NCBI GenBank assembly: GCA_964342815.1
Contig: CAYFHS010000042.1
Coordinates: 1 to 36,634, forward strand
Length of the DNA: 36,634 nucleotides
Direction: 5' to 3'
Origin: an uncultured archaeon
Lineage (GTDB): Archaea > Thermoplasmatota > Penumbrarchaeia > JASLWR01
The stretch's first letter is position 1. Each line of letters starts with the position of its first letter. A program made the translations under genes and the position numbers. This document shows positions 28,814 through 30,145 of the stretch, one piece after another. A model generated the notes under the pieces. The model searched no databases. It saw only the letters and a program-made list of their open reading frames with translations, and was not told the DNA's origin.

Positions 28814-30145
28814 TCAGCCGTTTAGCTTCCTGAGCGAGAAAAATATCATTTCTTCGATAATTCGCCGTAATGCATCGTCGTCCCTGCACTTCGATCTTTT
28901 AGTCAGGTCAAGATACTGGTCGAAATACCCAATAGGCAGGTCGAGTACGGGTATGTCGTTCGACCTCAGAATATGAAACATCAGGAGGCGGGATGTCCTG
29001 CTGTTACCATCGATGAACGGATGGATCCTTTGAAACTCGTTGTGGAAGAAGGCCGCAAAAGATATCACTTCGGCAAGGTTGTTTCTACCCTCTGTGAATT
29101 CACGGTATTTCTCCATCAGGCGCTTGATCTTCATGGGTATCATTCGCCACTCGCACGTTTTGAAGCTTGGGTTCCCCTTGATCCTGACGTTCTGACTACG
29201 TAACTGGCCGGCACCGTGAATGTGTTCCATCCGCAGGAATCCCCTTTGGGGACCGCCGCCGTTTGGTGGCGGGGAAAAAGGGGAAGCAGATTCCTGCGTT
29301 TCCGAGGATGAAACCCACCGATTCATCGGTGGGTGATTCATTGCCGATCGATGGTACTCCAATATGAGCGGGAGGTCAATCTTGATGCCCTTTTCCGAGT
29401 TTTCGACCATAAGGTCTATGGCTCTTTTATAGTTGCTGACCTCTTGAATATGTCTCAGTTTATGCTTCTCGGGAACTATCTCCTGAAGGATCAATTTCTG
29501 TGTCTCCGGCAGCGTCAGGGGGTTTCCCTCAAGATGCAAACTGCTGTAAATGAAATCCACTTTTCGTCTTTTTTCAAGATCGTCAAGGATGGAGTAGTTG
29601 ATCTTAAGGTTCCGCTTGTATTTTCTCAGTTCATTTTTGATCTCCCTCATGAATGTATGCTCTTTCGGAGTGTAAAAATCGGATTCCCTTCCAAAATATT
29701 GCAAGAGCTTTACTAGAAAATTGTGTCGGAGCAACTTGCAGGTCACTGGTCTTCTGGAGATGACCAAAAGAATTCCATACCTGGACAAAGCCGTCCGGTA
29801 AAAATTGAAGGTTCGGGGATTTATTGTGATATCTTTCGTCGTGAAGAATTCCTTTCGAGCCGCCTGTTCAATGAATTCGATCATCGTGGGCTTTAACATA
29901 AGGTTATAATTCATTCCGTTGTCAACGCAGAATCGTATTAATTGGAATAATTGGACTGAGCTCGGGTCTTTCGATGGTCGTACGGCCTCATTTCGGTATA
30001 CCAGATTTTCCTTTTCAAGTTTCAGAACTTGGTTGAAAATGCTCCTGTATTCTTCCTTGTTCTTATGAAGGGCGTCGACGATATCGATCACTCTTATTTC
30101 ACCCTTTGTCGCTATAACGTAGAAGACATCGTACTTCGAGACCAT
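28814..30145 (-). CDS. Fic-domain protein with N-terminal wHTH-like region and internal inhibitory helix
   Basis: Fic loop HPFIDGNSRTSR, inhibitory motif SLHLEGN (S/TxxxEG/N), flap GQLRSQNVRI. Contains a 37-aa in-frame insertion. Confidence 0.9.
   Translation of the reverse strand: MVSKYDVFYVIATKGEIRVIDIVDALHKNKEEYRSIFNQVLKLEKENLVYRNEAVRPSKDPSSVQLFQLIRFCVDNGMNYNLMLKPTMIEFIEQAARKEFFTTKDITINPRTFNFYRTALSRYGILLVISRRPVTCKLLRHNFLVKLLQYFGRESDFYTPKEHTFMREIKNELRKYKRNLKINYSILDDLEKRRKVDFIYSSLHLEGNPLTLPETQKLILQEIVPEKHKLRHIQEVSNYKRAIDLMVENSEKGIKIDLPLILEYHRSAMNHPPMNRWVSSSETQESASPFSPPPNGGGPQRGFLRMEHIHGAGQLRSQNVRIKGNPSFKTCEWRMIPMKIKRLMEKYREFTEGRNNLAEVISFAAFFHNEFQRIHPFIDGNSRTSRLLMFHILRSNDIPVLDLPIGYFDQYLDLTKRSKCRDDDALRRIIEEMIFFSLRKLNG
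29231..29341 (+). mobile_element. 111-bp palindromic miniature element inserted in frame in the Fic gene
   Basis: IR CGCAGGAATC (29232-29241) / GATTCCTGCG (29289-29298) enclosing two hairpins, plus terminal palindrome ACCCACCGAT-TC-ATCGGTGGGT followed by GATTCAT. Removal restores ...HRSAM-EHIHGAGQLR. Confidence 0.75.

Follow-up and report, generated by a model that had tools for sequence, protein, structure and literature searches.

A candidate 111-bp hairpin-rich mobile element lying in frame in a Fic gene of an uncultured marine Thermoplasmatota archaeon

Short hairpin-forming repeats have been described from several prokaryotic lineages. The Rickettsia palindromic elements RPE-1 to RPE-10 (Ogata et al.) are summarized in PMC10969869. 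Palindrome-associated transposable elements (PATEs), which derive from IS200/IS605 transposons, are known from haloarchaea, including Haloquadratum walsbyi (PMC3119063), and IS200/IS605 is the commonest insertion sequence (IS) family in archaea (PMC13343696). Haloquadratum also carries the small mobile repeats SMR-A, which are ∼110 bp long, produce no target duplication, and are mobilized in an unknown manner (PMC3119063). REP and REPIN sequences, mobilized by RAYT (TnpA-REP), include a GTAG-tagged REP superfamily, as outlined in PMC3733652. Here we describe a 111-bp hairpin-rich segment inside a Fic gene of an uncultured archaeon of the Thermoplasmatota. The window, i.e., the whole stretch of DNA that was analyzed, comprises 36,634 nucleotides (CAYFHS010000042.1) and corresponds to contig C42, one of 116 in a 4.35-Mb assembly that is 89% complete (GCA_964342815.1, here called G000).

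The plus-strand letters between positions 29231 and 29341 agreed with a preliminary description of this DNA, which had noted a 10-bp inverted repeat (CGCAGGAATC/GATTCCTGCG), the hairpins CCGCCGCC-GTTT-GGTGGCGG and ACCCACCGAT-TC-ATCGGTGGGT, a terminal GATTCAT, and a preceding TCCAT. On this strand, the segment begins with CCGCAGGAATCC and ends with GTGGGTGATTCAT. The G+C content of the element is 55 to 61%, compared with 45% for the genome, and folding as single-stranded DNA gave z scores of −6.65 for the plus strand and −6.11 for the minus strand, with none of 200 shuffled sequences folding as well. The sole long open reading frame (ORF) spanning the segment is located on the minus strand (28814 to 30145) and codes for 443 amino acids (aa). 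A protein search yielded 335 Fic homologues, which are mostly 405 to 410 aa long, as are nearly all of the best ones. In the protein alignment, P0001 and P0002 (both 406 aa; 85% and 84% identical, respectively) displayed a clean 37-residue gap (..YHRSA-MEHIHGA..), just as had been anticipated for orthologues, with a single Met at the insertion point, and the same gap was present in more distant Fic homologues. P0003 (73% identical, 461 aa) contains the element at the identical codon, plus an 18-residue module nested within it. Because an ATG flanks the insert on both sides, it can be written equivalently as M...R or N...M; the DNA coordinates proposed initially hold and encode M...R, but the accompanying peptide bracket, N...M, was one codon off. 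No Fic orthologue was found in the sister-species genome or other genomes of the family, so that the Fic locus itself offers no empty site at the level of DNA. At the level of sequence comparison, these results confirmed that 29231 to 29341 is an exact 111-bp insertion in the Fic gene.

BLAST and profile searches of G000 revealed eight canonical copies (seven of 111 bp and one of 109 bp), in addition to longer composites and fragments that retain the right end only. Copies elsewhere in the genome, some of them in frame in ORFs, had been expected, and both were found. A sister species of the same genus, G003, contains ∼8 canonical copies (the assemblies compared were 89 to 93% complete). Within the taxonomic family, the element was present in two of four genomes, namely, G000 and G003, both from this one genus. 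When the right-end 24-mer was searched against a collection of species-representative genomes, the only other match was "Thermoplasmatota archaeon isolate ETNP2_MAG_1," which is evidently G003. Viral contigs gave twelve 17-mer matches, attributable to chance only, and contained the element in no case, and JGI metagenomes yielded 13 loci, most of which correspond to loci of G003.

Four of the copies in G003 are 100% identical over all 111 bp, and their flanks are all different. The median pairwise identity of copies was 97.7% in G003 versus 85.6% in G000, so that the family was active recently in G003 and is old in G000. With flanks alignable between the two species at 74 to 89% identity, exact empty sites were detected in G000 for four G003 copies and in G003 for the G000 copies on contigs C22 and C47, with a difference of 111 bp in each case, i.e., empty/filled pairs at 6 loci. 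One orthologous copy of 109 bp, located at the ends of convergent ORFs, is shared by both species (G000 C2:227033-227141 and G003 L041:1501-1609); it is 93.7% identical, and its flanks are 77 to 82% identical. This C2 copy is also the G000 copy nearest to the G003 master sequence. Judging from these alignments, the element moved after the split of the two species, and did so recently in the sister species. The presence/absence pattern within the genus and the identical copies at different loci uphold the earlier proposal of a nonautonomous mobile element and support a multicopy family confined to a single genus of uncultured marine Thermoplasmatota.

TTCAT is the terminal sequence of each of the 16 canonical copies. 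In contrast to this constant 3′ end, the five bases 5′ of the element vary (TCCAT, TACAT, TATAT, TCTAT, TGCAT, TCAGT, TACCT, and ATCGT) and do not covary with it, which excludes a target-site duplication (TSD) of fixed length. At distinct loci, the position immediately upstream was T in 21/21 flanks, preceded by A in 18/21 (AT), and the trinucleotide was CAT in 14/21. From the aligned flanks, we conclude that the target is not duplicated and that the preferred target resembles the 3′ end of the element itself. No terminal inverted repeats (TIRs) were present in register: the left end, CCGCAGGAATCC, and the right end read as its reverse complement, ATGAATCACCCA, share only an out-of-register GAATC, and a short GAATC(N)CCC similarity occurs close to both ends.

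To score the fold, the minimum-free-energy structure of the plus ("top") strand, consisting of 38 pairs in four helices, was projected onto 12 distinct copies. Minimum-free-energy and centroid structures of the element were identical, with stems beginning at nucleotide 2 and finishing at nucleotide 111. Over all 38 pairs and 12 copies, 98% of cells formed standard pairs, and changes on both sides (compensatory changes) were observed in 10 pairs, a number reached by 0/500 shuffles; sliding the partners by 1 to 3 columns lowered pairing to 45 to 59%. The long three-tier hairpin accounts for 24 of these pairs, which were 98 to 99% paired across the copies, four of them with changes on both sides. 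The right-end hairpin contributes 14 pairs, six of which are compensatory, whereas its five ATGAA/TTCAT pairs (ATGAA at element positions 78 to 82) are invariant; a second GATTCAT is located in the loop region of this hairpin. The preliminary description had proposed a local TCCCC-TTTG-GGGA hairpin. The hairpin stretches that it named are present, but this one was rejected as a conserved pairing, since covariation backs pairs 10-17/47-54 and one long stem. Non-Watson-Crick cells on the plus strand comprised 20 G·T, spread over 13 pairs, versus 1 A·C, which assigns the conserved fold to the plus strand, i.e., the strand antisense to the Fic mRNA. In terms of sequence, these data show a constraint on the nucleic acid fold of the top strand and not on the peptide.

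The element is 3 × 37 nucleotides long, and three of its six frames are free of stops (top frame 2 and bottom frames 0 and 2), so that about half of random intragenic insertions would keep the gene open. In the Fic gene, the element is read on the bottom strand in frame 0, giving 37 residues rich in Ser, Pro, and Gly. Bottom frame 0 is also used by the other copies located in the middle of ORFs, i.e., in a MOFRL glycerate-kinase-like gene on C22 and in three paralogous surface-protein genes of 1,430 aa on C1, as well as by two G003 copies at gene starts. In contrast, the C47 copy uses top frame 2 and adds 37 different residues seven codons ahead of the stop of a PKD/winged-helix (wHTH) protein, whose orthologous tail stays in frame downstream of the insert. 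Searched against 5.8 billion proteins, the bottom-frame peptide matched UvrC, a class I/II aminotransferase, a ferredoxin-thioredoxin-reductase-like (FTR) protein, an ABC-auxiliary-like protein, MOFRL, and several small ORFs; the top-frame peptide matched the C47 protein and one other, unrelated protein. By Pfam, the insertions lie mostly in interdomain linkers or tails, and in UvrC, the domain match ends at position 61 of 116, just ahead of the insert. Copies outside long ORFs have gained a stop (C29) or lost 2 nucleotides (C2 and L041), whereas those residing in ORFs are all open, with bottom frame 0 open in every one of them. The proposed insertion without disruption of the frame is thus not peculiar to Fic, as the element recurs in frame in many unrelated genes, including those for an ABC auxiliary protein, the three surface-protein paralogues, and the PKD/wHTH protein.

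A second sequence of the Fic locus allowed drift of the peptide to be compared with that of the fold. P0121, a cluster representative from another assembly, stems from the same locus of a near-identical strain. It differs from the window protein in 4 of the 37 residues of the insert versus none of the 138 residues after it (hypergeometric probability, ∼0.002). Three of the four changes fall on arms of pairs 17/47 (C-G to T-A) and 89/99 (A-T to C-G), which are changed, yet still paired, in the window copy alone. By this comparison the peptide is a passenger, with its amino acids drifting and the pairing kept.

The identity of the host protein is supported by a Pfam match to Fic (PF02661; 54 bits versus a cutoff of 24) and by a family profile that hits (E = 4e-16) human FICD as well as further Fic proteins of solved structure. 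In the alignment with FICD, the insertion separates the helix ..LEYHRSA from the segment (M)EHIHGAGQLRSQNVRIKG; the FICD sequence aligned with the latter, ..VDPVEAGRFRTTQVLVG.., is the flap region. The Fic motif HxFx(D/E)GNGRxxR is matched by HPFIDGNSRTSR, with the second Gly replaced by Ser throughout the clade, and 60 homologues show no variation at H375, P376, F377, D379, G380, N381, S382, R383, and R386. The resulting HPFIDGNSR, in place of the canonical ..GNGR, is found in a set of homologues that come mostly from DPANN-type archaea. SLHLEGN matches (S/T)xxxE(G/N), the inhibitory-helix motif of class II Fic proteins; S202, L203, L205, E206, and G207 are invariant, and N208 is almost so. 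Both the catalytic and the inhibitory-helix motifs are intact in the insert-bearing protein. Coordinates of these features and of the element are listed in Table 1.

Table 1. Positions of the element, its hairpins, and features of the host gene in the window
Feature	Positions	Strand	Details and basis
Putative mobile element, 111 bp	29231..29341	+ ("top" strand; fold conserved there)	Alignments of 16 canonical copies, empty sites, 37-codon orthologue gap
Target pentanucleotide TCCAT	29226..29230	+	Directly 5′ of element; on gene strand, Met codon of ..SA-M-EH...
Long three-tier hairpin	29232..29298	+	Pairs 2-9/61-68, 10-17/47-54, 23-30/35-42
Right-end hairpin	29308..29341	+	ATGAA (29308-29312) with terminal TTCAT (29337-29341) around 9-bp stem ACCCACCGA/TCGGTGGGT
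Host gene, Fic-family protein, 443 aa	28814..30145	-	N-terminal winged-helix-like domains, C-terminal Fic domain; ORF list, Pfam, homologues, FICD profile
Extended flap segment	29150..29230	-	Residues 306-332 (MEHIHGAGQLRSQNVRIKGNPSFKTCE), starting directly after insert; aligns to FICD ..VDPVEAGRFRTTQVLVG..
Fic active-site motif HPFIDGNSRTSR	28988..29023	-	Residues 375-386; translation
SLHLEGN, inhibitory-helix motif	29522..29542	-	Residues 202-208; aligns to TVAIEGN of FICD

AlphaFold2 models of the proteins with and without the insert were in line with this placement. The window protein was predicted with a mean predicted local distance difference test score (pLDDT) of 83, with residues 271 to 319 (the insert and its neighbors) below 50, including flap residues 306 to 319. 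The insert-free P0001 reached a mean pLDDT of 93.5 without any residue below 70, and its equivalent segment (residues 269 to 295) was extended, nonhelical, and confident (pLDDT of 79 to 97). In these models, the 37-residue insert shows as a low-confidence loop between helix and flap; the lowered confidence of the initial 14 residues of the flap could be genuine or an artifact of modeling. Together with the FICD alignment, the models bear out the earlier placement of the insert beside the flap, at the helix-flap junction. P0050, a Fic orthologue from another lineage, has a different insertion of ∼50 residues between its N-terminal domains (alignment columns 153 to 202), which may be another in-frame repeat.

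It had further been suggested that insertion or precise excision of the element switches the target specificity or activity of Fic. The insert is present in the near-identical P0121 and in the 73%-identical P0003, and absent from the 85%- and 84%-identical P0001 and P0002. The closest Fic clade has four members, two with and two without the insert, and was recovered with support of 100/99, its inner order being unresolved. Forcing the two carriers to be sisters cost 10.7 log-likelihood units (approximately unbiased [AU] test, p = 0.09), so that a single ancient gain without loss stays compatible with the tree and excision is not required. A gain with a later precise loss, or two insertions at this one TCCAT site, would be possible as well. 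With the insert persisting in both the near-identical strain and the 73%-identical orthologue, the sequence comparisons do not support a switch of Fic specificity or activity.

A search for the enzyme that might mobilize the element covered the same genomes. IS200-type TnpA genes occur twice in G003, alongside two fragments. The two genes encode different IS200-type Y1 transposases (L060:1423-1890 and L062:1405-1896). The L062 gene has classical, matching end hairpins (CCAG..CC TTTA GG..CTGG), and the L060 type, found only in G003, is accompanied by a GTAG-tagged hairpin just beyond its stop codon. TnpB was not found by Pfam in any of three relatives, and no left and right element ends that could mark an autonomous parent were found kilobases apart in G000. 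An IS110-type transposase gene on the small contig C110 (1,579 bp) was rejected as a parent, since its G+C content of ∼63%, versus 45% for the genome, marks the contig as a probable binning contaminant that is unrelated to the element. Motif matches at positions 1573 and 34555 of the window were discarded, as they lie in ordinary coding sequence. In a comparison of these two genomes, the recent burst falls in the Y1-bearing G003 and only old copies occur in the Y1-free G000, a coincidence that is suggestive. The absence of transposases is to be read with the incompleteness of the assemblies (89 to 93% complete), in which repeats often fail to assemble. The IS200/IS605 origin proposed at the outset was borne out only in part: the anatomy fits (no TSD, no TIR, a 3′-end-like target, subterminal hairpins, and a single folded strand), but no tnpA/tnpB element with corresponding ends was found in G000 or G003. 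Since no parent transposon with matching ends was found, affiliation with IS200/IS605, argued here by analogy, is unproven.

The element is also connected with other repeats of the genome. Two identical composites of 183 bp reside at different loci (C1:238564-238746 and C3:29000-29176), which indicates that the composite itself is mobile. In each, the right-hairpin loop of the 111-bp element accommodates a 72-nucleotide two-hairpin module (CCGTAG...GTGGGCAT), placed straight after ..TTTAT; in the element, this loop holds ..ATTCAT. At C10:81964-82017 of G000, a right-end module (..GTGGGTGATTCAT) runs immediately into the first 13 nucleotides of a left end (CCGCAGGAATCCC), beyond which the DNA is unrelated; this arrangement could be the remnant of a tandem insertion after TTCAT or of an integrated right-to-left junction. 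A larger family of ∼70-nucleotide two-hairpin units with variable stems populates G000 (e.g., C4:132171-132220, C2:86782-86829, and C13:66220-66251). Its linkers (CCGTAGG, CGAGGRTGCAG, and CGGAACGTAGTGGGCAY) are conserved, and the 111-bp element shares the first two of them as well as a GGAATCC stem.

On balance, we somewhat favor the view that the element is nonautonomous, hairpin-rich DNA of the kind represented by PATEs and Rickettsia palindromic elements, and that the insert in Fic is a tolerated passenger. The element would travel as single-stranded top-strand DNA, with its hairpins recognized by an enzyme acting in trans. Such an enzyme might cut after TTCAT, which pairing to ATGAA would anchor at the base of the right hairpin, and join the element after a similar target, in a manner like that in which HUH/Y1 transposases move IS200/IS605 elements. 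The insert in Fic would then be a passenger loop and not a regulator. By analogy, the one-strand fold, the target mimicking the 3′ end, and the TTCAT pairing at the foot of the right hairpin fit one-strand transposition of the HUH/Y1 type. Several points weigh against this view. Neither Y1_Tnp (PF01797) nor TnpB (PF07282) was found in the 89%-complete assembly of G000 by Pfam or tblastn. The hairpins that flank the TnpA genes of G003 are unrelated to the element, element ends do not flank any TnpA or TnpB gene, and none of the 13 metagenome loci links the element to a transposase. The L062-type TnpA is 81% identical to a gene of a genus that is free of the element. The left and right hairpins are dissimilar, and the left end has no spacer between cleavage site and hairpin, unlike that of IS608. 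Compensatory changes could come from hairpin-templated mutation instead of selection, and the excess of G·T could reflect strand-biased deamination; the copies are related, and counts of pairs and cells are thus nonindependent. Translation of the peptide, moreover, is predicted from ORFs.

Another reading would trace the element, as a PATE, to an IS200/IS605 transposon native to the lineage and have it moved by the TnpA of that transposon, with insertion and precise excision toggling the activity or target choice of Fic. We regard this as possible but doubtful. The four descriptive traits of PATEs (no TIR, near-terminal palindromes, no duplication, and insufficient length for a transposase) are all found here, the ATGAA/TTCAT pairing is like an arrangement of guide and cleavage site, and Y1 transposases occur in the burst species G003 and not in G000 with its old copies; the insert also abuts the flap and is carried by two of the four closest clade members. 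Nevertheless, no TnpA or TnpB lies between element ends, the L062-type TnpA also occurs in a genus without the element, the AU test leaves a single gain without excision compatible (p = 0.09), and the insert is stable rather than toggling, because it is kept in the near-identical strain and in the 73%-identical orthologue. It is rather improbable that the element and the larger two-hairpin family with which it shares CCG(C/T)AGG and CGAGGATG linkers are moved as single-stranded DNA by an enzyme other than a recognizable IS200/IS605 TnpA; if true, marine Thermoplasmatota would possess a hairpin-directed system of transposition that has so far gone undescribed. The same holds for the alternative that resident copies are kept folded because their top strand serves as an antisense RNA against the host gene, including Fic.

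Copies might instead have been spread through use by the host, as a functional RNA (an antisense regulator or structured small RNA) or a cis-element such as a terminator. Conservation of the fold on one strand with G·U tolerated, the 93.7% identity of the C2/L041 copy against 77 to 82% for its flanks, and two compensatory changes in place at the Fic locus would suit this idea. It is nonetheless unlikely, as the element had no Rfam match (the best being a partial, subthreshold glmS hit with 19 bits versus a cutoff of 37), lies in either orientation to genes, be it inside ORFs, at gene starts or ends, or between genes, and is present as four identical copies at unrelated loci, the mark of a burst. 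We give still less credence to a cut-and-paste MITE (miniature inverted-repeat transposable element) mobilized by a DDE transposase via TIRs. Small size, copy number, palindromic nature, and the GAATC(N)CCC near both ends recall such elements; on the other hand, there are no in-register TIRs, no TSD, and no parent transposon found, a strand-asymmetric fold is unexpected of a double-stranded substrate, and the only IS110-type gene of the assembly is on the foreign-looking contig with 63% G+C. Hardly credible, finally, is a mobile coding module, or the removal of the 111 nucleotides as a bulge-helix-bulge intron or mini-intein that would leave mature Fic without the 37 residues. A length that is a multiple of three, the open bottom frame 0 of ORF-resident copies, and the occurrence of the peptide in many proteins are what such a module would predict. 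Two frames on both strands are translated at different loci, though, and amino acids change while base pairs are kept. ORF-resident copies stay open and the others decay (stops, 109 nucleotides), an openness that would be needless if the segment were spliced. To our knowledge, 37 residues without a Cys/Ser...His-Asn signature cannot be an intein.

The family is a clear archaeal counterpart of Rickettsia palindromic elements, i.e., selfish hairpin DNA by which proteins are extended and not disrupted. It is also a well-defined case: the boundaries are exact, a target motif and empty sites have been identified, two frames are translated, and conservation is seen directly in the DNA or RNA fold and not in the peptide. 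In the literature searched, we found no description of an in-frame element of this kind in Thermoplasmatota. For annotation, inserts of 37 residues rich in Ser, Pro, and Gly in proteins of this lineage should be regarded as repeat derived, and the copies provide natural data on the tolerance of Fic, UvrC, and other enzymes to insertions. They also raise the question of the enzyme by which a PATE-like element is moved where the genome lacks a matching TnpA.

Of the described systems, SMR-A resembles the element in its length of ∼110 bp, lack of target duplication, unknown mobilizer, and nesting in palindromes of other elements. SMR-A, however, has prominent TIRs and targets PATEs, whereas the present element is without TIRs and is itself a target of nesting. 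With REP and REPIN sequences it shares single-strand hairpins, a short tag beside the stem, restriction to a lineage, and modularity (PMC3733652). Positions 3 to 6 of the element read GTAG in 2/16 and GCAG in 12/16 canonical copies, and CCGTAGG recurs in the larger repeat family. Unlike REPs, which are extragenic by definition, the element resides in ORFs, and no RAYT-like or Y1 gene is flanked by it. PATEs are similar in being archaeal elements that have neither TIRs nor target duplication and lack the length for a transposase, with near-terminal palindromes and a conserved terminal oligonucleotide (PMC3119063); in both cases, other small repeats are nested in the palindromes. Their palindromes match resident IS605-type transposons, whereas no such parent was found in G000 or G003; moreover, the two end hairpins of the element differ from each other, and in-frame residence in genes is not a described feature of PATEs. 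Rickettsia palindromic elements, as characterized in PMC10969869, are likewise palindromic, ∼100 to 150 bp long, devoid of a transposase, and inserted in frame in many unrelated housekeeping genes, to whose products they add a conserved peptide; the archaeal copies are retained mostly in linkers, loops, and protein ends. With an archaeon as host and no known sequence relationship, the element is an analogue and not a member of that group. It differs further in using two frames on opposite strands, with many copies intergenic, and in combining apparent selection for the fold of one strand with a defined CAT/TTCAT motif.

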